64,000 bases of DNA from Candidatus Saccharimonadales bacterium (lineage in GTDB: Bacteria; Patescibacteriota; Saccharimonadia; QS-5-54-17), in NCBI GenBank assembly GCA_040903985.1, contig JBBDUI010000002.1, positions 671,469 to 735,468 of the forward strand, given 5' to 3'. The notes below the pieces were generated by a model, which was given only the letters and a program-made list of their open reading frames with translations, was not told the DNA's origin and did not search any database. The position numbers and the translations under genes are program-made. Position 1 is the first letter of the stretch. Each line of letters opens with the position of its first letter. Below are positions 41,461 through 64,000 of this stretch, piece after piece.

Positions 41461-41547
41461 GCCGCGGTGGCGGAATTGGTAGACGCGCTAGGTTTAGGAC
41501 CTAGTGAGGTTACACTCGTGAGAGTTCGAGTCTCTCCCGCGGCACCA
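41461..41547 (+). tRNA. tRNA-Leu (anticodon TAG) with a long variable arm and encoded CCA
   Basis: The acceptor stems gccgcgg and ccgcggc pair. The D-arm GGTAGA, the anticodon loop ttTAGga and the T-arm GGTTCGAGTCT are present. A 19-nt variable stem-loop and a 3' CCA are present. Confidence 0.9.
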
Positions 41548-52970: not shown

Positions 52971-53446
52971 TGCCACGCAAGAAGACTAAATCCCTCCAAC
53001 GTAATATCCAGCCGGATCGCAAGTACAATAGCGTACTGGTAGCCCGTTTGATTAACAAGGTCATGCTGGATGGCAAGAAGCTTAAAGCCGAACGAGTAGT
53101 CTATGATGCCTTAGAGGAAGTGGAGCGCCGCACTAAGCAGCCGGCACTCGAGGTTTTTGAAGCGGCTTTAAGGAACGTCTACCCTCAGGTTGAGGTTAAA
53201 TCGCGTCGCGTCGGCGGTGCTAACTATCAGATTCCTTACGAGGTTAAAGGTAGTCGCCAGATACACCTTACACTGATGTGGATGGTGCAGGCGACACGAA
53301 AGAAGAAGGGTAAGCCGATGAGCCTGCGTCTAGCCGATGAGCTGGTAGACGCCTATAACAATGCCGGTGAAACCTTCAAGAAGAAGGAAGATGCTCATAA
53401 GATGGCAGAGGCCAACCGTGCTTTCGCCCACCTTGCGCGGTTCTAG
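52970..53446 (+). CDS. rpsG: 30S ribosomal protein S7
   Basis: Typical S7 sequence (PDRKYNS...). Confidence 0.95.
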   Translation: MPRKKTKSLQRNIQPDRKYNSVLVARLINKVMLDGKKLKAERVVYDALEEVERRTKQPALEVFEAALRNVYPQVEVKSRRVGGANYQIPYEVKGSRQIHLTLMWMVQATRKKKGKPMSLRLADELVDAYNNAGETFKKKEDAHKMAEANRAFAHLARF

Positions 53447-53455
53447 GGTTCAAGC

Positions 53456-53752
53456 ATGAGTGGTATTTGCGAAGAGCGCCCCTTGCAGGCTACGCTGGAT
53501 AGCGCTCAGGAACTGGTCGAGCACTATCCAGAAGATGTGCATCCGACTCAGGAGCAGTCTCTGGGTGGTATAGCGGTTACCGCGAGTAGCTTAGAGCGGG
53601 TAGCTAAGCGATTGAACTGCCCGGGACCGATTACCAAAGATCAGCTCGACTGCCCCTTGCGGGACTCCGCCCTCGGTGCTCGTAACTACGGTTTAGGTAA
53701 ATGGGATCTGCAAGTTGACCTGAATGAAGATAGGCCGGGATATCATGGATGA
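53456..53752 (+). CDS. hypothetical small ORF (98 aa) in the unusually long rpsG-fusA spacer; coding status uncertain
   Basis: Intact ORF in a spacer of about 400 bp that is normally short. The RBS is weak, local GC is high and repeated ccccttgc(a/g)gg motifs occur, so it could instead be a structured RNA. Confidence 0.3.
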   Translation: MSGICEERPLQATLDSAQELVEHYPEDVHPTQEQSLGGIAVTASSLERVAKRLNCPGPITKDQLDCPLRDSALGARNYGLGKWDLQVDLNEDRPGYHG

Positions 53753-53843
53753 ATCAGGGTCTACTGGATCAAAATCTAGGATACCGCATCATCCAGGACA
53801 ATATTTATAAATTTAAGCTAATAGATTTGATAAGGAATTAAAT

Positions 53844-55925
53844 ATGACTAAACGTGAGCATGCATTAGAATCAACTAGAAATATCGGCACTATCGCCCAC
53901 ATCGATGCCGGGAAAACTACCGTCACTGAGGGCATACTTTATCGCACTGGTTTAACCCATAAGATCGGGGCCGTGCATGAAGGTGAAGCTACCATGGACT
54001 GGATGGAGCAGGAGCAGGAGCGAGGTATTACGATTACCTCAGCTGCAACGACCTGTTTCTGGAAGGATCATCGGATTAACATTATCGACACTCCGGGCCA
54101 CATCGACTTTACCGTCGAGGTTGAGCGCAGTTTACGTGTACTTGATGGTGCCTTGGTGATTTTCGACGGCAAGATGGGGGTTGAGCCTCAGTCAGAGACC
54201 GTCTGGCGCCAAGCTGATAAATACAAGGTGCCGCGCATCTGCTTTATCAATAAGATCAACCAGACCGGTGGCGATTTCTATTCGAGTCTAGAGACGATAC
54301 ATGAGCGTCTAGGCAAACATGCCTATCCGATTCATTTACCGATAGGCTTCGAGCAGTCGGTCTCCGGTATCGTCGATCTCATCGAGATGAAGGCTTACAC
54401 TTACGATGATTTTACCGATAAGGAACTAAAAGTTAGTGAAGTACCGGAAGATATGCTGGAGAAGGTAGAGCGCTACCGCCAGCACTTGATCGAAGGTGCA
54501 TTGGAGCACCACGACGAGCTAATGGAGAAGTACTTGGAGACCGGAGAGCTAAGTGAAGCAGAGATTAAGTCTGCCGTGCGGGAATCGGTACTAACCGGTA
54601 AGTTCTATGCCGTATCTGGCGGTGACGGTCGCGGTGTCATCATGGAGAAAGTCCTCGATGCCGTAGTTGACTACCTACCTAGCCCGTTAGATGTTCCACC
54701 TGCCAAGGGTGAATCACCGAAAACCGGTGAAGAGATTACGCGGAAGACTTCTGATGATGAGCCGTTTACGGCCCTAGCTTTTAAGGTCGCCACCGATCCG
54801 TTCGTCGGAAAACTAACTTTCTTCCGGGTTTATTCCGGTACCATGGAGGCCGGCTCCTATGTCCTAAATGCTAATACCGGCAGTAAAGAGCGTTTAGGCC
54901 GTATCGTTCGTCTGCATGCTAACACTCGCGAAGATGTAGACAAGGTTTTTGCCGGTGATATCGCAGCCGCCGTCGGCTTGAAAGGTACAACTACCGGGGA
55001 CACCCTGTCCGATGTTGATAACCCGGTAATGTTAGAGAACATTACTTTCCCAGACCCGCCGGTAGCCGTAGCGATCGAACCAAAGACTAAGGCTGATCAG
55101 GAGAAGATGTCGACCGCCTTGCAGCGCCTAGCGGAAGAGGATCCGACCTTTAGGGTCCACACCGATGAAGAGACCGGCCAGACGATTATTGAAGGTATGG
55201 GTGAATTACACCTTGAGATCATCATCGATCGAATGAAGCGTGAATTTAAAGTCGAAGCTGACGTCGGTAAGCCTCAGGTAGCTTACCGGGAGGCTATCAC
55301 TAAGCCGATAGCTAACGTCGAGACTAAATTTATTCGTCAGACGGGTGGTAGGGGTCAGTACGGGCACGTCATCATCGATGTCGAACCACGTGAACGTGGG
55401 GAGGGCTTCGACTTCGAGAACGCTATCGTCGGTGGTTCAATTCCCCGCGAGTACATCAAACCAGTGGAAGAAGGCATCAAAGAGGCCTTAGCCAGTGGTA
55501 TCATTGCGGGCTACCCAGTAGTAGACGTGGGCGTTAAGCTACATGATGGTTCATACCATGATGTCGACTCTTCGGAAGTAGCCTTTAAGATCGCCGGCTC
55601 TATGGCTATCCAAGATGCCGTGAAGCGAGCCGGACCGGTTCTGCTTGAACCGGTGATGAAGATTGAAATCATCACTCCGGAAGAGTTCATGGGAGATGTA
55701 ATGGGAGATGTGAATTCACGTCGAGGCCGGGTAGAGAAGATGGAGGACCGTGCTAAGGCCAAGATCATCGAAGCCTATGTGCCGTTAGCTGAGATGTTTG
55801 GCTACACTACGGACCTACGCTCTATGACTCAGGGGCGAGCTGCCAGCTCAATGGAGCTATCCCACTACGAGCCGGTCCCTTCCCAGGTGGCCGAGGCAGT
55901 TATCGGCGAACGCGGATCGAAGTAG
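53844..55925 (+). CDS. fusA: elongation factor G
   Basis: G domain ([21 protein letters not shown]) and EF-G domains II to V. Confidence 0.97.
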
Positions 55926-55999
55926 CGACTGAGTGGGGTGTCGTGATCTCTGATCGACACCTCGATTCGTTACCACATACATTTGCCAGTTAAGAGGGC

Positions 56000-56028
56000 T
56001 TGCCAAACAGATGTAGGATCAGTATAAT
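56000..56028 (+). promoter_or_regulatory. sigma70-like promoter upstream of tuf (TTGCCA-17-TATAAT)
   Basis: Consensus-like boxes in the fusA-tuf gap. The hairpin gtgtgcc-tag-ggcacac lies in the leader. Confidence 0.5.
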
Positions 56029-56097
56029 CAAAAGCTGATGATAATTCGGTGTGCCTAGGGCACACTTTAATATAAGTAAATTTTAAGGAGTTAGCAG

Positions 56098-57279
56098 ATG
56101 GCTGATTTTAAGCGCGATAAGCCGCACATTAATGTAGGTACTATGGGTCACGTCGACCACGGTAAAACTACTCTAACCGCTGCCATTACCACAGTTTTAG
56201 CAGAGAAAGTTCCTAGCGACATCAACAAGATGGTCGCCTATGATGCGATCGACAAGGCACCGGAAGAGCGAGAGCGGGGAATTACTATCGCTACTTCACA
56301 CCAGGAGTACGAAAGTGAAAACCGACACTATGCCCACGTCGATATGCCGGGTCACGCCGACTACGTCAAGAACATGATTACTGGAGCTGCCCAGATTGAT
56401 GGTGCCGTCCTAGTAGTATCGGCTGCTGATGGCCCAATGCCACAGACTCGAGAGCACGTTCTATTGGCTCGCCAGGTTGGTGTGCCAAGTATCGTGGTCT
56501 ACCTGAATAAGACCGATCTTGCCGACCCAGATCTTGTCGAATTAGTCGAGATGGAAGTCCGTGAACTCCTTGAGAAGTACGAATACGACGCCGACGCACC
56601 AATTGTGAAGGGGTCTGCCCTGAAGGCTATCGAAGGTGACGCTGATGCTCAAGAGTCAATCATGGAGCTGGTTAAGGCAATGGATGAATTCTTTCCCGAG
56701 CCGAAGCGCGAAATCGAGAAAGACTATTTAATGCCAGTTGAGGATGTTTTCTCAATCAAGGGCCGTGGAACTGTTGCTACCGGACGAATCGAGCAGGGAA
56801 TCGTTAACGTTGGTGACGAGATCGAGATTGTCGGTTTACGCGACACCACCAAGTCGACCGTTACTGGGGTTGAGATGTTTAATAAATCCCTTGATCAGGG
56901 ACAGGCCGGCGATAATGTCGGTATCTTGCTTCGTGGTATTGAACGCGACGATATCGAGCGGGGCCAAGTGCTGTCTAAGCCTGGTTCGATTACTCCACAC
57001 ACCGAGTTCGATGCGGAAGTCTACATTCTTAACAAAGATGAAGGCGGACGCCACACTCCATTCTTCAAAGGCTACAAGCCACAGTTTTACTTCCGTACCA
57101 CAGACGTTACTGGCGAAGTAGAGCTCCCAGAGGGCACTGAGATGGTGATGCCGGGTGACACCATTACCTTTAAGGTTAAACTGATCCAGCCGATTGCCAT
57201 GGAAGAGGGTCTCCGCTTTGCTATCCGTGAGGGTGGTAAGACGGTTGGGGCCGGTGTGGTAACGAAGATCAATAAGTAG
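56098..57279 (+). CDS. tuf: elongation factor Tu
   Basis: [17 protein letters not shown] and NKTD motifs; 393 aa. Confidence 0.97.
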
Positions 57280-57284
57280 CATCA

Positions 57285-57608
57285 ATGGCAGCTGATACAC
57301 CTAACAAACAGCGCATTCGTATTAGGCTTAAAGCCTACGATCATAAGTTGATAGATCAGTCTGCTAAGCAGATTATCGAGACGGCACTACGGACCGGTGC
57401 GACGGTAGCCGGTCCAGTACCGCTGCCGACCGATCGTAGTAGTTACACGGTGATTAAGAGCCCGCACATCTTTAAAGATTCGCGCGAACAGTTCGAGATG
57501 CGCGTTCACAAACGTTTGATCGACATCACTGACCCGACAAACAAGACTATCGATTCATTGATGAGTCTAAGTTTGCCCGGCGGGGTCGACACCGAAATCA
57601 AGATGTAG
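57285..57608 (+). CDS. rpsJ: 30S ribosomal protein S10
   Basis: The sequence [18 protein letters not shown] is typical of S10. Confidence 0.95.
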
Positions 57609-57630
57609 TCTTAAGTTGTTTAAGTAAAAA

Positions 57631-57657
57631 GGAGAGCGCTAGCTCTCCTTTTTACTT
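57631..57657 (+). terminator. rho-independent terminator immediately after rpsJ
   Basis: The hairpin ggagagc-gcta-gctctcc is followed by tttttacttttc, with an A-run upstream. Confidence 0.7.
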
Positions 57658-57710
57658 TTCTGGCTAGTCCATGCTCGCATAATCGCCAGGTCTTTGCTTA
57701 AATAGGAGTA

Positions 57711-57977
57711 ATGAAAACGCCTAGTAGAGTTCAACCAAGTGAAGCGGACAGTGTCTACTTCTTAAAATTACTACTCTTCTTTATCTTGGGGGCTATCTGG
57801 CTCTACCTACCTTTCACCTCCGTCCCGCTTCCGATCGGTTTTGTGCTGGGAGTGCTGTTTGCCCGTCATGACCACTTCCAGGTGGATCGGAAAATCGAAT
57901 ATGCCATATTATTGGTAGCTGCTATCTTAAGTCTGGTAGCTCCGATAGGGATTGTACTCGACGCTACAGCTCTATGA
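57711..57977 (+). CDS. small two-TM membrane protein (88 aa) inserted between rpsJ and rplC
   Basis: Hydrophobic ORF; its stop overlaps the start of the downstream gene (ATGA). Confidence 0.5.
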   Translation: MKTPSRVQPSEADSVYFLKLLLFFILGAIWLYLPFTSVPLPIGFVLGVLFARHDHFQVDRKIEYAILLVAAILSLVAPIGIVLDATAL

Positions 57978-59683
57978 AACGAATCGGGCGGCTGTTTACC
58001 AATTATTTAAGCCGACGATCGACTCGGCTTGTCCTAGCGGCAGTAGCTTTACTCATAGCAGCTTTAGCCTTGACATGGGTTTACTACCAACCGGTGCGAG
58101 CCGAAGTCGACTACACCGCCTGTGATATTAGCTATGGTGAGGTGGTAGGTGAATGGAGTGGTAGCGAGGATAGCGAGTGGGATCGTTCCGGTGTGCACTA
58201 TCAAGTGCGCCGTTTCTCACTCCAGGCGCATGCACCTGATGTGGCTCGGCCCAATACAATTGAGGCCGTACCGTCCCGACTTAGTACCGGAGGAGGGGAT
58301 GGCTGTATCGAGGAGTTCGACGAAACTATAGATACGACGGCCGAGTTCTATCGCTACAACGGAGCCCGCACTCAGGCTATTCGCTTCGGTGTGCCCGATC
58401 TGGGTGATACCAATACGGGTGGCAGGTTTTTCCGTCCGATCAGCCGAGCAGAGAGTAGGGCTGATTTAAGCGTTCCGGTTTATGCCACTCATCCTACAGC
58501 GGCCGCAGTTTGGGTTGATGATGGAGGGAGTGCCGAGATACTAATAGAGGCCGAGGCGACACCGCTCTGGTGCATTAATGGTTCAGACTGTCACGATATT
58601 ATCGACCATGAGGCCGCTCCGTATCCAGCGAAAGGGCAGGGCTATCAGTTTGTGACCGATAACTGTCCGGCGGCAATTAGCTGTAACGCTGAATGGTACG
58701 ATGCCACTATTCTTTCCCGCCTCACTACAGCTGAGGCTACCCCAGTAGCACCTTTCGATCTTCGACTCTCGGCTGTTTCAACCTGGGCCCCGACTATCGG
58801 GACTGAAATGTTGTTGGTCTTTGCCTACCCTACCGAAGTAGAGTTAGATGTAGCCTTGAATGCTGAGAGTGATACGTTCGATCCAGGTGCTAGTTTCGAC
58901 CTCACCGCTCATATCTCTAAGGTAGGACCTCTTGTTACGGAGGGACAGCTCCAGCTAGAGACAGCCGAACAACCTGCCGACTCCCCGGCCTCAACCCGGG
59001 TGTTAACAGCCACAGAGTTAGCGACCTTAAATCAAACCGATGTGCTTAAACTTACATTTCCGGTCACTATTGCTCCAACTGCTGAGCGCGGAGCCTGCTA
59101 CCAGCTACAGTTAGCTCTTACTGGTGTTACGGAAAATCGATCTATAACTGGATTTGACTACTGCATTACTCCGCCGGATCCTGAACCTACCTCACCAGCA
59201 TCACTCGCAACACACTTTACCTATAGTGTTAATACCCGGGGTGAGACGGAGTCTGATTTGAGCCAGTTTAAGGCTCAAGCGGCCGCTACCTTGAATGATG
59301 CACGTGGTTGGGCACAGGCCGGGGTTTCAACTACAGCTGTATCGAGCGGTGGCGATTTCATTTTATGGTTAGCTGCACCAGATACTATGACTAGCTTCTC
59401 ATCCGCCTGTTCGGCCGAATACAGCTGTCGGGTGGGGCAGAACGTGGTAATTAACGATGCACGATGGCAAAACGCTACGTCGGCTTGGAACTCGGCTGGT
59501 GGTAGTTTGCGTGACTACCGTCATATGGTAATTAACCATGAGGTGGGACATTTCTTAGGTCATGGTCATTATGGCTGCCCAGCTCCAGGTGCTCGCGCCC
59601 CTGTGATGCAACAGCAGTCGATCGATTTAGATGGCTGTAAGTTTAACCCCTGGCCGTTGCCGTTCGAACTAGCTGCAATTTAA
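57974..59683 (+). CDS. membrane-anchored/secreted protein (569 aa) with a C-terminal metzincin-type zinc-binding motif; putative metalloprotease
   Basis: N-terminal signal anchor (LVLAAVALLIAALALTW). Near the C-terminus, HMVINHEVGHFLGHGHY fits HEXXHXXGXXH, followed by a possible Met-turn (APVMQ). The rest has no recognisable domain. Confidence 0.55.
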   Translation: MKRIGRLFTNYLSRRSTRLVLAAVALLIAALALTWVYYQPVRAEVDYTACDISYGEVVGEWSGSEDSEWDRSGVHYQVRRFSLQAHAPDVARPNTIEAVPSRLSTGGGDGCIEEFDETIDTTAEFYRYNGARTQAIRFGVPDLGDTNTGGRFFRPISRAESRADLSVPVYATHPTAAAVWVDDGGSAEILIEAEATPLWCINGSDCHDIIDHEAAPYPAKGQGYQFVTDNCPAAISCNAEWYDATILSRLTTAEATPVAPFDLRLSAVSTWAPTIGTEMLLVFAYPTEVELDVALNAESDTFDPGASFDLTAHISKVGPLVTEGQLQLETAEQPADSPASTRVLTATELATLNQTDVLKLTFPVTIAPTAERGACYQLQLALTGVTENRSITGFDYCITPPDPEPTSPASLATHFTYSVNTRGETESDLSQFKAQAAATLNDARGWAQAGVSTTAVSSGGDFILWLAAPDTMTSFSSACSAEYSCRVGQNVVINDARWQNATSAWNSAGGSLRDYRHMVINHEVGHFLGHGHYGCPAPGARAPVMQQQSIDLDGCKFNPWPLPFELAAI

Positions 59684-59684
59684 G

Positions 59685-59714
59685 TTGACACCCCTTAGGG
59701 AGCGCTGGTACAAT
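59685..59714 (+). promoter_or_regulatory. sigma70-like promoter (TTGACA-18-TACAAT) upstream of rplC
   Basis: Consensus -35 and a good -10 in the 139-bp gap after the inserted genes. This implies the rplC cluster is transcribed separately from rpsJ. Confidence 0.5.
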
Positions 59715-59822
59715 TAATCGGTACGTATTCGCTATGTAATCTTGCGAAAACTGCTAGAAGATATCCTGCAGCTATTCAAGGGGTATAATTCGTAGCAGTA
59801 TTTTTATGTAAAGTGGACTTAA

Positions 59823-60548
59823 ATGAGCCCCGTAAGCAGCTTGCTTGCTGCAACTAAGGAACTATTTGCTATGGCAGACCAGTTAGACAATTCAGCTGAG
59901 ACCAAAAGCTCAACTACTACCGCCGCCCAGCCAGCAGCTAATGGGGTAAAGGCGCTACTCGGGCGTAAACTCGGTATGACGCAGATATTCACGGCTAACG
60001 GTGAGGCTAAGGCCGTGACTTTAATCCAGGCCGGCCCCTGTGTGGTAACTGCTGTTCGTGATCAACTCAAGGACGGTTATCAGGCGGTACAGATCGGCTA
60101 CGGAGAGGCCAAGCGGCTCAACCAAGCCCAGAGCGGACACTTAGCTAAAAGTGGAGCTAACTCGGCTGTCTTGCGCGAAATTCGCGGTGAGTTCGAGTGC
60201 GCTGTTGGCGACACTCTCGATGTAAATACCTTTGTACCTGGGGAGAAGCTGACAGTGAGTGGGGTCAGTAAGGGAAAAGGTTTCGCCGGCACAATAAAGC
60301 GCCATAATTTTAGCCGCGGCCCAATGAGCCACGGCTCTCGTAACAAGCGCCGTCCCGGTAGTATCGGCTCGATGTATCCGCAGAAAATCTTTAAAGGTAA
60401 GAAGATGGCTGGGCGGATGGGTAATGAAAACGTCACCCTTAAGAACCTGTCTATCGAGGTGGTGGATAGTGAAAATCATATTTTAGCTATTGCCGGCGCT
60501 GTTCCGGGTCGCCGGGGTAGCTTACTCTTAGTGAAGGGGCAGAACTAA
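59823..60548 (+). CDS. rplC: 50S ribosomal protein L3 with an N-terminal extension of about 40 aa
   Basis: The conserved L3 core starts at [15 protein letters not shown]. The upstream 40 aa are low-complexity, so the true start could be at the internal Met at 59871. Confidence 0.85.
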
Positions 60549-61186
60549 TGGCTCAGGCGATTACATTTACTAAAACCGGGGCTAAGGCGACCAAGCAGAC
60601 TACTCTGCCGAAAGAGCTATTTGACCATGAGGTGAAGAGCTATACTTTGCTACGTCAAGCCTACGAAGCTTATGAGCACAATGGCCGCAGCAGTACTGCT
60701 CGGGTTAAGACTCGCGGTGAAGTTCGGGGTGGTGGCCGTAAACCATGGCGCCAGAAAGGTACTGGTAATGCGCGGGCTGGATCGATTCGTAGCCCTATCT
60801 GGCGTGGTGGTGGTATTACGTTCGGACCTACCGGTGAGGAGAACTACACCAAGAAACTCAATACTACCGCTAAACGTCGGGCTTTAACACAGGCTTTATC
60901 GCTTAAAGCCGCGGCTAAGTCGGTATATACCATCGAGACGATCGAGCTGAAGGAGAACAAGACAAAAGAGCTAGCCCAGCTGCTGGCCAAGCTAGATATG
61001 GGTCGTCGGATCATCGTTGTCGTCGAGAACAAGACACCGGAACTAACCCGTGCTGCAAATAACTTACCAGAAGTCTCTTTGATGCAGGCTAGTTATCTTA
61101 ACGTAAAGACTGTGCTCGATGCCGACGGACTGTTATTTGTTGGTAAGGCTATGGAAGTTTTAGCTACACAGATGGAGAAGAAGTAA
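60548..61186 (+). CDS. rplD: 50S ribosomal protein L4
   Basis: L4 family sequence; operon position. Confidence 0.9.
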
Positions 61187-61479
61187 TGATTTTACGCCCA
61201 GTAATCTCTGAGAAAGCAATCACCTTAACTGATAACGACAATACTTATGCTTTCTTCGTGCCCAAGACAGCTAACAAAATCACTATTAAGCAGGCTATCG
61301 AGGAGCGTTACGGCGTTGGAGTTGAGCTAGTGCGTACCAGTGTAGTTAAGGGCAAGTCGAAACAGATGCCGGTGAAAAGGGGACGACTCGTCATTACCGG
61401 TCGTCGCAGTGACCAGAAGAAGGCCTATGTCACACTGAAGGAAGGCGACAGTATCACTATATTTGAGGGGAGTGAATAA
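61186..61479 (+). CDS. rplW: 50S ribosomal protein L23
   Basis: L23 family; operon position. Confidence 0.9.
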   Translation: MILRPVISEKAITLTDNDNTYAFFVPKTANKITIKQAIEERYGVGVELVRTSVVKGKSKQMPVKRGRLVITGRRSDQKKAYVTLKEGDSITIFEGSE

Positions 61480-62309
61480 TGGCTATTAAGAGTTATAAAC
61501 CCACCTCGCCAGCCCGACGCGGCATGACTACGCACGATACCGCCGCCGTTACGGCGCAGCGGCCCAAGAAGTCACTGACCGTGGCCAAGAAACAGCAGTC
61601 AGGGCGGAATAACACCGGAAAGATTACTACCCGTCACCGCGGTGGAGGTGCTAAACGGCGCTACCGCAAGCTAGATTTCAAGCTGAACGATGGTGTGGTA
61701 GCTACGGTCGAATCGATCGAGTATGACCCTAATCGTAGCGCTCACGTCGCCTTAGTGAAGAGTGCTGATGATGCCTACGCCTATGTCTTAGCCACTAGTA
61801 AGATGGGAGTCGGCGATAAGATCGAGGTTGGACCTGAAGTAGCCATTACGGCCGGCAACCGTTTACCACTTGGCAGCATCCCGCTCGGAAGTACGATTCA
61901 TAACATCGAGTTGACGATCGGTCGCGGCGGCCAGCTCGTTCGTAGTGCCGGGGCGCGAGCCCAACTAACTTCAAAGGAAGGCGACTGGGCCTACGTCCGC
62001 CTGCCCAGTGGTGAGGTGCGCTTGATTCACCAGAACTGTTACGCTACACTAGGCAGCGTTGGTAACGAGCAGCACCAAAATATAAAGATTGGTAGTGCTG
62101 GTCGTAATCGCCGTAAAGGCAAACGTCCGAGTGTACGTGGTAAAGCAATGAACCCAGCCGATCACGGTATGGGCGGTGGAGAAGGCCAGTCAAGTCCTGG
62201 TCGCCACCCTGTTACACCTTGGGGCAAGAAAGCCATTGGCCGTAAAACCCGCCGTCGTAAACGTGGCGATGATATGATTATTCGCTCACGCAGCAAGAAG
62301 AGGAGATAG
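61479..62309 (+). CDS. rplB: 50S ribosomal protein L2
   Basis: L2 motifs (GRNNTGKITTRHRGGG and the C-terminal GGGEGQ) are present. Confidence 0.95.
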   Translation: MAIKSYKPTSPARRGMTTHDTAAVTAQRPKKSLTVAKKQQSGRNNTGKITTRHRGGGAKRRYRKLDFKLNDGVVATVESIEYDPNRSAHVALVKSADDAYAYVLATSKMGVGDKIEVGPEVAITAGNRLPLGSIPLGSTIHNIELTIGRGGQLVRSAGARAQLTSKEGDWAYVRLPSGEVRLIHQNCYATLGSVGNEQHQNIKIGSAGRNRRKGKRPSVRGKAMNPADHGMGGGEGQSSPGRHPVTPWGKKAIGRKTRRRKRGDDMIIRSRSKKRR

Positions 62310-62582
62310 ATGAGTCGTTCACTGAAAAAGGGACCATATATAGATGAGCGCTTGCAGCGCAAGATTGAGGCGATGGATACGGGCGACCGTACCATTATTA
62401 AGACTTGGGCGCGAGCCAGTACCATTACGCCAGAGATGGTCGGTAAGACTATAGCCGTGCACAACGGTAAGGTCCACGTGCCGGTCTTTGTCAGTGAGAA
62501 CATGGTAGGTCACAAACTTGGTGAGTTCTCCCCTACGCGTAAATTTAAACGTCATGGCGGCAAACTCGCCAAGGGAGAGTAG
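62310..62582 (+). CDS. rpsS: 30S ribosomal protein S19
   Basis: The sequence [11 protein letters not shown]...HNGK is typical of S19. Confidence 0.95.
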
Positions 62583-62584
62583 TC

Positions 62585-62920
62585 GTGAAAGCTATTGCTA
62601 ACGGTCTCCGGGTTCCACCACGCAAGATGAATATGGTAGCTGCATTGGTGCGTAAGCGCGACGTGACGGACGCTTTAGTTATTCTGGACCATACCCCCCG
62701 TCGGGCCGCTCAGGCTTTACGTGAAGTTATCAAGAGTGCCGCCGCTAATGCCGAACACAACGATAAGGTCGACCCATCCAAGTTAGAGATCGCCGCTATA
62801 AACGTCGGTACCGGCGGTATGATTAAGCGGATGCGGCCCAATGCGCGTCTCAGCGTTCGTCCCTATCGTCACCGCCTAAGTAATGTAACCGTCTCACTGC
62901 AGACGAAAGGAGATAAGTAA
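62585..62920 (+). CDS. rplV: 50S ribosomal protein L22
   Basis: GTG start; L22 family and operon position. Confidence 0.9.
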   Translation: MKAIANGLRVPPRKMNMVAALVRKRDVTDALVILDHTPRRAAQALREVIKSAAANAEHNDKVDPSKLEIAAINVGTGGMIKRMRPNARLSVRPYRHRLSNVTVSLQTKGDK

Positions 62921-63546
62921 TGGGTCATAAAGTTAATCCCATCAGCATGCGTCTGCAAGTGAATAAGGACTGGAAGTCCAAGTGGTTTGCTAACAAACGC
63001 GATTATGCCAGTGCACTACATGAAGATATTAAGATTCGTGATCTAATTGAGCGCCAGCTTGACCGCCGCGCCGCTGTAGATCGAGTTGAGATCGAGCGTT
63101 CACCAAACGCCATAGCCGTTAATCTCTTCACTGCTCGTCCCGGGGTAGTAATTGGCCGCGGGGGCGAAAATGTCGATGCCTTAAAGCAAAAGCTGGCCAA
63201 GCTGATCGACTCTCCTATCACTCTTAACATCGAAGAGGTTAAGAAGCCGGAACTACACGCCAAACTAGTGGCTGATAATATCGCTTCCCAGCTCGAGCGG
63301 CGTATCTCTTTCCGTCGGGCGATTAAGTCTACAGCCGATGCCACTATGCGTTCCGGTGCTAAAGGGGTGAAGATTATCGTGTCTGGCCGTCTGAACGGGT
63401 CAGAGATGGCGCGCACCGAGAAAGAAGTACTCGGATCGATTCCGCTACACACTATCCGAGCTAATATCGACTACGCTAAGGTTACTGCGGTCACCACTTA
63501 CGGCGTTATCGGCGTTAAAGTATGGGTTTACCAGGGCGAGGAGTAA
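62920..63546 (+). CDS. rpsC: 30S ribosomal protein S3
   Basis: The sequence MGHKVNP..RLQV and a KH domain. Confidence 0.95.
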   Translation: MGHKVNPISMRLQVNKDWKSKWFANKRDYASALHEDIKIRDLIERQLDRRAAVDRVEIERSPNAIAVNLFTARPGVVIGRGGENVDALKQKLAKLIDSPITLNIEEVKKPELHAKLVADNIASQLERRISFRRAIKSTADATMRSGAKGVKIIVSGRLNGSEMARTEKEVLGSIPLHTIRANIDYAKVTAVTTYGVIGVKVWVYQGEE

Positions 63547-63549
63547 GTA

Positions 63550-63975
63550 ATGTTATTACCGAAGAAGACCAAATATAGAAAGGCGATGAAGGGACGGATT
63601 AATGGTGTAGCTCAGCGAGGCAATGCTATCAGTTTCGGTAGTTATGGCCTACAGTCGCTCGGCACCGACCGGGTAACCTCTCGCCAAATCGAGGCCGCCC
63701 GTCGGGCTATGACTCGCTATATTAAGCGGGGTGGTAAGATCTGGATTCGGATCTTTCCGGATCTGCCTGTCAGTCGCAAGCCGAACGAGACCGCAATGGG
63801 TAAGGGTAAGGGCGCGCCAGAGTTCTTTGTGGCTCGTGTCCGTCCCGGTACTATGCTGTTTGAAATGTCTGGTGTGACGGAAGAGATCGCGCGGGAAGCA
63901 ATGCGTCTGGCGAGCCATAAGTTACCGGTTAAGACGCGCTTTTTAGTTCGTCACGTACCTGGGGAGAGTGAATGA
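63550..63975 (+). CDS. rplP: 50S ribosomal protein L16
   Basis: The sequence [11 protein letters not shown]... is typical of L16. Confidence 0.95.
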
Positions 63976-64000
63976 TGTTGGCCGATCTACGTAAAGAATC
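63972..64000 (+). CDS. rpmC: 50S ribosomal protein L29, N-terminal fragment truncated by the window edge
   Basis: The ATG overlaps the rplP stop. The MMLADLRKE start and the operon position point to L29. Confidence 0.5.

Follow-up and report, generated by a model that had tools for sequence, protein, structure and literature searches.

Why do two further genes lie between rpsJ and rplC, the genes of ribosomal proteins S10 and L3, in a Candidatus Saccharimonadales bacterium, and how long have they been there? The DNA in question, called the window throughout, is a stretch of 64,000 nucleotides (assembly GCA_040903985.1, contig JBBDUI010000002.1, positions 671,469 to 735,468 of the forward strand), in which rpsJ is followed by an open reading frame (ORF) for an 88-aa membrane protein (ORF88, a member of a family that we call O88) and by one for a 569-aa protein (ORF569) before rplC begins. 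A sequence-only reading of this DNA had proposed a lineage-specific and possibly recent insertion of the two genes, with its own terminator and promoter, into an ultra-conserved linkage. Observed gene identities and synteny, the conservation of promoter and leader, RNA covariation of a class-wide motif, and a metzincin fold with its motif favour a different answer, to which we give a probability of about 0.7: an old, class-wide break between rpsJ and rplC that holds O88 and an anchored metzincin, with rplC having its own promoter and an attenuator-like leader.

The S10 protein was used to pull 80 loci, one genome per GTDB species, and tuf, S10, both ORFs, L3 and L4 were placed in each locus by tblastn, with Chloroflexota, Limnocylindria, Clostridia and Actinomycetota (n=11) serving as controls. 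The results showed an S10-to-L3 distance of 143-5238 bp (median 1.19 kb) in 56 Saccharibacteria species, the gap being shorter than 250 bp in 4 and at least 500 bp in 50 of them, compared with 39-127 bp in the 11 controls. Because the distances in the 56 species exceed those of the controls, the rpsJ-rplC break is a property of the whole class and not of the window genome. The distance from tuf to S10 had a median of 567 bp and reached 2.3 kb in Saccharibacteria, against 14-126 bp in controls. The 165 ORFs found in the gaps clustered into one large cluster, which is O88, a few small clusters and 95 singletons. Pfam families among them included NUDIX, HAD, CTP synthase, peptidase M29, adenosine deaminase, VanY, S11 carboxypeptidase and CHAP, together with LysM, PGA_cap, the LPG synthase C-terminal domain and a reverse transcriptase. 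The break is ancient and class-wide and has a precedent in cyanobacteria, while being unusual compared with most bacteria; its documentation as a systematic feature of Saccharibacteria is new here.

As to that precedent, Sanangelantoni and Tiboni are said to have found in 1993 that rpsJ lies apart from rplC in Spirulina platensis, and likewise in plastids. The title of their paper, as given in PMC1242208, places the genes of EF-Tu and S10 together in S. platensis, and Table 1 of PMC1242208 has a separate rplCD operon leader for marine cyanobacteria. Saccharibacteria differ in that rpsJ and rplC usually remain within 0.1-5 kb of each other, with a gap that contains variable genes including O88, and in that their leader is unrelated in sequence to the cyanobacterial one and belongs to no Rfam family. 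The linkage called ultra-conserved by the sequence-only reading is real as an adjacency in the control phyla, but the term overstated it, given the EF-Tu/S10 grouping and the separate rplCD leader in cyanobacteria.

In the window, the elements that concern us are arranged as follows.

53844-55925, + strand: fusA, from the ORF list
56000-56028, + strand: promoter-like site TTGCCA-17-TATAAT, 11/12 match in the promoter scan, within the 172-bp fusA-tuf spacer
56098-57279, + strand: tuf (EF-Tu), an ORF with 78-91% identity to tuf of related loci
57285-57608, + strand: rpsJ (ribosomal protein S10), Pfam PF00338 Ribosomal_S10 at E=8e-37 and NCBIfam S10 equivalog at 158 bits (cut-off 85)
57622-57668, + strand: intrinsic-terminator-like hairpin, arms 57622-57637 and 57642-57657, loop GCTA, T-rich tail
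57698-57703 and 57704-57708, + strand: -10-like TTAAAT and Shine-Dalgarno AGGAG, read from the sequence just 5' of ORF88
57711-57977, + strand: ORF88 (O88), 88 aa, small membrane protein of a Saccharibacteria-specific family
57974-59683, + strand: ORF569, 569 aa, membrane-anchored extracytoplasmic protein with a C-terminal DUF3152/metzincin-fold domain
59537-59569, + strand: zinc-binding motif HEVGHFLGHGH (H522, E523, H526, G529, H532), invariant alignment columns
59685-59690 and 59709-59714, + strand: rplC operon promoter, TTGACA and TACAAT separated by an 18-nt spacer, 11/12 match, TG at 59706-59707
59720-59870, + strand: rplC leader, with P1 and P2 hairpins, U-tract, spacer and Shine-Dalgarno AAGGA at 59856-59860
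59871-60548, + strand: rplC (L3), NCBIfam L3_bact equivalog at 238 bits, followed by further S10-operon genes

The elements read from the letters alone were all borne out, at or near the coordinates given for them. Two ORFs do separate rpsJ from rplC, a strong terminator-like element (a perfect 16-bp hairpin with a U-tract) does follow rpsJ, the 88-aa membrane protein and the 569-aa protein are coupled by an ATGA overlap at 57974-57977, and the near-consensus TTGACA-18-TACAAT ahead of rplC is present and conserved in relatives and in the class. The tuf-rpsJ junction, which is also broken in most Saccharibacteria, measures only 5 nt in the window from the end of tuf to the start of rpsJ; four opposite-strand genes stand at this junction in the loci L089 and L090 (L089 561-2815; L numbers label the loci compared). 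The promoter-like site at 56000-56028 indicates that tuf-rpsJ may be transcribed apart from rpsL-rpsG-fusA. Elsewhere in the ribosomal string of relatives, an extra 111-aa ORF was seen between rplB and rpsS in L091 (7038-7373), and a 56-aa ORF that lacks a Pfam match occupies the expected place of rpsS in L004 (4321-4491).

Could the two genes nevertheless have entered an intact S10 operon recently, as a cassette brought by lineage-specific insertion or horizontal transfer? In favour of such an event are the close spacing of rpsJ and rplC in the control phyla, the clade restriction of the full-length DUF3152 protein that ORF569 encodes (only 9 homologues in a database of 5.8e9 proteins), and a G+C content at third codon positions of 0.47 in ORF569, which is 1.7 standard deviations below the window mean. 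Set against these, the sequence-only reading's own checks came out the other way: the same O88-DUF3152-rplC order is kept in all nine relatives, at 37-47% protein identity, and GC and codon usage of the two genes are typical of the window (GC 0.468 for ORF88 and 0.525 for ORF569, window mean 0.513 +/- 0.021; relative synonymous codon usage distance of ORF569 0.72, ordinary for its length). The gap, the separate rplC promoter and the leader are found class-wide, and O88 is 50-70% conserved across the class. We found no direct repeats flanking the two-gene region, no integrase, transposase or other mobility gene in 57.6-59.7 kb, and no tRNA at the borders, the window's only tRNA lying at 41461, about 16 kb off; PHROG and PADLOC searches with both proteins gave no match. 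The region therefore has none of the repeats, mobility genes, tRNA target or deviant composition by which a mobile element or genomic island is recognised, and a recent arrival is very improbable. The chance that an assembly or binning error joined unrelated DNA between rpsJ and rplC is practically negligible: the window does come from a metagenome-assembled genome, but the same junctions recur in at least nine independent assemblies of different projects and sequencing runs, with contigs as long as 747 kb, and the same layout was found both in independent NCBI metagenome-assembled genomes and in Logan contigs of different runs, which excludes the assembly error that the sequence-only reading had allowed for. 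Both genes are long-resident and vertically inherited.

The two sides of the gap carry signals that would end one unit and open the next. Downstream of rpsJ lies a 16-nt inverted repeat, 100% complementary, with a 4-nt loop and then TTTTTACTTTT; in RNA terms, a stem core of GGAGAGC/GCUCUCC, a GCUA loop and the tail UUUUUACUUUU make up the G+C-rich hairpin plus U-tract of an intrinsic terminator. RNAfold returned the 16-bp stem, and the 111-nt spacer taken as a whole scored z=-3.07. The terminator scan did not list this hairpin, while RNAfold and the inverted-repeat search both do. A Rfam match to sraA at 57618-57713 (minus strand) was rejected, with 25 bits against a gathering threshold of 56, and corresponds to the terminator hairpin itself. 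Terminator-like hairpins follow rpsJ in 35/72 Saccharibacteria-type loci compared with 47/880 background windows, an approximately ninefold enrichment. Judged from these sequences, rpsJ would close a tuf-rpsJ unit in the class, often with an intrinsic terminator.

On the other side, the rplC promoter TTGACA-18-TACAAT matches the consensus at 11/12 positions with a TG-extended -10 box and has the spacing of a sigma-70-type promoter; only two sites of 11/12 occur within 53000-64000, this one and the one 5' of tuf. TTGACx-17/18-TACAAT/TACACT/TATACT opens the rplC intergenic DNA in all nine relatives, and nearly all Saccharibacteria loci possess a perfect TTGACA 120-250 nt 5' of rplC, paired with a -10 box that is TG-extended and reads TAnnnT. 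The promoter is present even where the rpsJ-rplC gap is 144-208 bp, and the mean best promoter score was 9.3 in Saccharibacteria versus 6.5 in controls. Because the promoter is conserved class-wide and the hairpins are enriched over background, chance is not enough to explain the rplC promoter and the rpsJ terminator. ORF569 and this promoter have no terminator between them; the ORF569 stop codon is complete at 59683, which leaves a single base ahead of the -35 box. As for rplC itself, the ORF extends over 241 aa from 59823, and the L3_bact model begins at its residue 45. The L3 proteins of relatives are 200-203 aa long, and the position of their MKAL start reads GTA-AAG-GCG in the window (GTA at 59946-59948). 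Because the relatives' start codon is GTA here, rplC probably starts at the ATG at 59871 rather than at 59823, which gives the window L3 a low-complexity N-terminal extension (25-41 aa) that is not in relatives.

Between this promoter and rplC lies a leader whose structure is conserved. In the window it comprises a P1 hairpin (59728-59732 / 59744-59748) and P2, a long imperfect hairpin at 59750-59799 (CUGCUAGAAGAUAUCC...GGGUAUAAUUCGUAGCAG) laid out as stem, AA bulge and stem, followed by the U-tract AUUUUUAU at 59800-59807. The leader DNA is conserved among relatives whose proteins are 40-60% identical, with a consensus fold of 21 pairs; the stems are invariant in six genomes, with few variable pairs, and loop length differs by as much as 14 nt. 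Invariant stems combined with a variable loop point to a hairpin rather than to a second promoter. The TATAAT at 59784-59789 was considered as such a promoter and rejected, its distance to the upstream conserved block varying by 10 nt and the block pairing with TATAAT. An AUG directly follows the U-tract, and the idea that it opens a leader peptide was likewise rejected, the downstream frames being neither conserved nor in phase. This AUG is conserved almost everywhere as part of GCAUUUUUAUGY (59800-59810 in the window), and the self-complementary GCAU-UUUU-AUGC could form a mini-hairpin that rivals the terminator stem.

Across the class, most loci share the consensus CUUGGU...AGGUCURCC...AACAGAGGUAGAAACC...ACCAAG-CAUUUUUAUG, that is, an outer stem of CUUGGU and ACCAAG, a variable middle stem, an apical GGUCURCC...AACAGAGGUAGAAACC element with an AA bulge, and then CAUUUUUAUG; the leader hairpin is followed by AUUUUUAUG in most loci. 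A covariance model, R1, was built from 35 class leader sequences. It found exactly one match per locus, always just 5' of rplC, in 50 loci at E<=0.002 (for example L045 8404-8478, L052 2699-2772 and L040 8385-8457, within the range L005-L070), and 15 of the 50 were outside the building set. In an alignment fitted to the R1 model, 91% of the cells were paired and 14/16 pairs had changed on both sides, a level that none of 500 shuffles reached; sliding the partners by 1-3 columns lowered pairing to 31-50%. The class-wide motif is a covariation-backed structure in the 5' untranslated region of a ribosomal-protein operon, which is what a ribosomal leader is taken to be. Searching Rfam 15 with the window and 7 loci gave no leader match at gathering thresholds, the only hits being of chance level at E<=10, and we found no literature that links ribosomal leaders with Saccharibacteria. 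A scan of a JGI metagenome set for CTAGAAGATA-N(3-25)-GGTATAATTCGTAG returned 0 matches, and the window clade appears to be absent from that set. This well-supported and uncatalogued structured leader 5' of rplC is new here, and it is probably a ribosomal-protein attenuator.

The window's own leader needs a separate word, since the DUF3152 clade has a divergent version. The R1 match at 59748-59812 is the best in the 64-kb window, with E 0.87 when the whole window is searched and 0.0068 for the 500 nt 5' of rplC. Its membership of the class-wide motif rests on position, on the shared architecture of stem, AA bulge and U-tract, and on flanking sequence, and we regard it as the positional and architectural equivalent of the class motif, for which homology is likely, not proven. 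Other hairpins occupy the same leader position in L085, L087 and L088.

Two known leaders invite comparison. That of the E. coli S10 operon, at which L4 with NusA causes termination and which is confined to Gammaproteobacteria (PMC3616713), is also a promoter-proximal structured leader that ends in a hairpin plus U-run ahead of the L3-L4-L23-L2 genes. It precedes rpsJ, whereas the Saccharibacteria leader precedes rplC, and the two have no homology of sequence or structure. The Archaeoglobi L4 leader candidate of Eckert and Weinberg (2020) is a structured RNA directly 5' of rplC-rplD-rplW-rplB and a proposed L4 binder (PMC7247131); by contrast, it is archaeal and differs in structure. No Saccharibacteria or Candidate Phyla Radiation motif is among the motifs of that study (PMC7247131).

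The most frequent occupant of the gap is O88, which stands there in 28/56 Saccharibacteria species. At E<=1e-3 it has 335 homologues, 50-70% identical; clustering at 50% identity leaves 99 groups in a set of 1.84e9 representatives. Every one is a small protein that stands alone, and wherever a source organism is named it belongs to the Saccharibacteria. Three of three independently chosen homologues, selected solely because their contigs are long, also lie between rpsJ and rplC. The family is marked by the motifs E-x-D-S-x-Y-F-L-K and H-D-H-F-Q-I-D-R-K-I-E-Y, and E11, D13, K19, W30, P41, G43, G47, H53, H55, F56, D59, K61 and E63 are invariant or near-invariant, a conservation that suggests a specific function. 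An AlphaFold2 model has three helices (predicted local distance difference test 85.7); a fold search of it against the PDB gave nothing below E=4, and Pfam has no family for O88 above cut-off. Acyl_transf_3, matched by 13 of 45 members in a Pfam scan (best E=1.5e-4), was discarded as below cut-off and composition-like. In many species a TATAAT/TATACT-like box stands 6-12 nt 5' of the O88 start (L008, L020, L044, L066, L064, L001, L003, L055, L033, L063 and L070), where the window has TTAAAT and a canonical AGGAG; these boxes suggest very short-leader or leaderless O88 transcripts. A class-specific O88 family tied to the rpsJ-rplC break is new here.

ORF569 begins with a basic N-terminus and a hydrophobic helix or signal anchor at about residues 19-37, continues with a cysteine-rich region (about 40-255) that has many invariant cysteines, 11 being counted in all, and no recognised fold, then with an Ig-like beta-sandwich (about 260-400, Foldseek), and ends in a DUF3152/metzincin-fold domain at 413-569. 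The sequence-only reading had called the protein secreted; with an N-terminal signal anchor that looks uncleaved, it is more safely described as extracytoplasmic and anchored in the membrane. Pfam PF11350 DUF3152 matched residues 413-554 with 90.0 bits against a cut-off of 25.1 (E=2.1e-25) and is also carried by eight ORF569 homologues. Within this domain HEVGHFLGHGH at 522-532 fits HExxHxxGxxH/D, and H522, E523, H526, G529 and H532 are invariant in 9 sequences, as are G525, G531 and M545; the last, 13 residues after H532, is a candidate for the Met-turn. The C-terminal domain has the fold of the metzincin catalytic domain (a five-stranded sheet and three helices in that group), and its fold matches include MMP-9, MMP-20, MMP-12, archaemetzincin, atrolysin and ADAM8/17, next to weak motif-level matches to Reprolysin, Matrixin and ADAMTS-5. 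A catalytic-domain profile run against PDB sequences was of no further use, yielding only a motif-level ADAMTS-5 match at E>1 plus spurious fluorescent-protein matches. By fold and motif the C-terminal domain is a zinc peptidase domain of metzincin type on the outer side of the membrane, with predicted activity, and the assignment of DUF3152 to the metzincin fold is new here.

Two known families come closest. Peptidase family M7 comprises small secreted enzymes of about 130 aa with Asp as the third ligand (HExxHxxGxxD). Strict membership of M7 was rejected for ORF569, which has His532 as third zinc ligand, is 569 aa long and is membrane-anchored. Compared with snapalysin, the M7 enzyme, the ORF569 domain is only 20% identical, and the protein is about 4x larger, with a membrane anchor and extra N-terminal and Ig-like domains. 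ORF569 matches the DUF3152 model well above its gathering score, and Rv3207c of Mycobacterium tuberculosis, a member of that family, is among predicted surface/adhesin candidates (PMC3726780); the 400-residue N-terminal extension of ORF569, by contrast, is found only in nine Saccharimonadales proteins.

The ORF569 protein itself is identical to an NCBI entry from a Candidatus Saccharimonadales metagenome-assembled genome, on a contig of 747 kb. Its homologues in the protein database are eight full-length proteins of 37-47% identity and one shorter protein, and a search of the same database with the DUF3152 alignment found these nine and nothing further. The shorter one (P0009, 394 aa) joins a DUF3152 domain, 58% identical, to an S-layer-homology (SLH) domain, which is consistent with a cell-surface place of the protease family. 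In all nine DUF3152 homologues with readable context (L001/L002, L003, L004, L034, L085, L086, L087 and L088), the gene comes directly after O88 and before rplC. The O88 stop overlaps the DUF3152 start in the window, L034, L085, L087 and L088, and because the two frames often overlap, co-translation as one unit is suggested. There are variants: in L085 rpsJ and O88 are separated by a NUDIX gene, and in L001 (GCA_050486185, 7871-10672) three genes without a Pfam family stand between protease and rplC promoter, a pair of paralogues (291 and 259 aa) and a gene for 349 aa. In the distant Saccharibacterium L089/L090 (4001-6792) the gap contains O88, an opposite-strand VanY gene, a 260-aa DUF3152 protein whose catalytic domain is 53% identical to that of the window, and a 310-aa protein that lacks a Pfam family. 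From this gap one may suspect that O88 and DUF3152 have been associated for longer and share an envelope theme, and the company of VanY, S11, CHAP and LysM in gaps elsewhere is likewise a hint of envelope work.

How well does the proposed reading withstand the points that weigh against it? O88 has many different downstream neighbours, so no specific O88-protease partnership is established. The window leader matches R1 only weakly (13.1 bits, 59748-59812), the covariation counts come, as stated, from a model-fitted alignment, and the whole window leader is not unusually stable (z=0.01). A close relative, L034, has no U-tract, which weakens a pure terminator model, and when conserved segments of the leader were matched approximately to E. 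coli 16S/23S rRNA, nothing rose above shuffled expectation. The N-terminal 250 residues of ORF569 are poorly modelled. Transcript ends, promoter use and attenuation are read from DNA, and we infer in the same way the attenuator ligand, the activity and substrate of the protease, and the role of O88. The hairpin plus U-tract might, for example, be only a constitutive terminator or insulator for the upstream genes, or an mRNA-stability element, instead of an attenuator controlled by a ribosomal protein. Its intrinsic-terminator form, its unremarkable stability and the lack of any other terminator between ORF569 and rplC in the window would suit such a role, which we nevertheless regard as unlikely: the element always lies 3' of a conserved promoter and would shut off rplC, its apical GGUCURCC...AACAGAGGUAGAAACC and AA bulge are conserved far beyond what a terminator needs, and leaders controlled by ribosomal proteins have precedents before rpsJ or rplC (PMC3616713, PMC7247131, PMC1242208).

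Two other readings concern the genes themselves. An exported hydrolase whose translation is coupled to that of a small membrane protein with several helices recalls a holin-endolysin-like or prophage-derived lysis cassette, in which the membrane protein would release or activate an envelope-degrading hydrolase, and the VanY, CHAP and LysM genes in the same gap of other species as well as a weak NCBIfam match of ORF88 to holin_phiLC3 (E=0.027, 14.7 bits) lean that way. We give it a very slim chance, since the holin score is far under the cut-off of 39.7 and was rejected as an assignment, the PHROG search matched neither protein, ORF569 is itself anchored in the membrane, phage genes are absent from the surroundings, and O88, a conserved gene found class-wide in one copy, keeps a fixed place in the chromosome with neighbours that vary. 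Alternatively, O88 (and possibly the protease as well) could be tied to translation or secretion, as a Sec/YidC accessory or a ribosome-associated membrane factor. In many bacteria secY is embedded in ribosomal operons, O88 keeps its rpsJ-rplC place in half of the species and in every independent look-up, and in the same loci it is more conserved (50-70% identity) than L3 (44-68%). This is quite unlikely in our judgement, as O88 lies outside both ribosomal units (3' of the rpsJ terminator and 5' of the rplC promoter), shows no Pfam or fold similarity to SecG, SecE, YajC or YidD, and is missing from the site in half of the species.

The preferred reading, an old break with O88, an anchored metzincin and a separately controlled rplC, can be put as the following course of events. 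Transcription of tuf-rpsJ would start from the promoter-like site at 56000 and stop, at least partly, at the hairpin after rpsJ. The gap between rpsJ and rplC would have accumulated variable genes, with O88 as the most frequent occupant, and the window's clade would have added a DUF3152 protease gene directly 3' of O88. O88 and protease would form a small unit, fed most likely by a weak proximal -10-like promoter or by read-through of the rpsJ terminator, with translation coupled by their overlapping frames, and proteins or peptides at the cell surface or in the envelope would most likely be the substrates of the protease. Transcription of O88 and protease could run on into the rplC leader. 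With a strong sigma-70-type promoter and a leader of about 100-250 nt, rplC would open its own operon, and the leader hairpin and U-tract would most likely be a regulated terminator responsive to one of the operon's ribosomal proteins, with L4 as the candidate by precedent.

None of these findings overturns expectations. The str/S10 region is taken for an almost invariable string of genes in bacteria and serves marker-gene phylogeny and synteny anchoring, and a systematic break between rpsJ and rplC, often accompanied by one between tuf and rpsJ, affects operon prediction, binning checks and pipelines that assume adjacency. In an ultra-small, host-dependent lineage in which almost nothing is known on gene control, the promoter and leader provide a concrete candidate case of ribosomal-protein regulation, while O88, class-specific and highly conserved, is a candidate envelope factor, and the anchored metzincin a candidate envelope or host-interface factor in these epibiotic bacteria. 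A bolder version, which we offer tentatively and do not expect to hold in full, is that the leader is an undescribed L4- or L3-sensing attenuator specific to Saccharibacteria and that the gap, bounded by this leader and by the rpsJ terminator, is the stable home of O88, working with exported envelope hydrolases like the DUF3152 metzincin. If that is true, the Candidate Phyla Radiation would gain its first defined ribosomal leader with an autoregulatory function.

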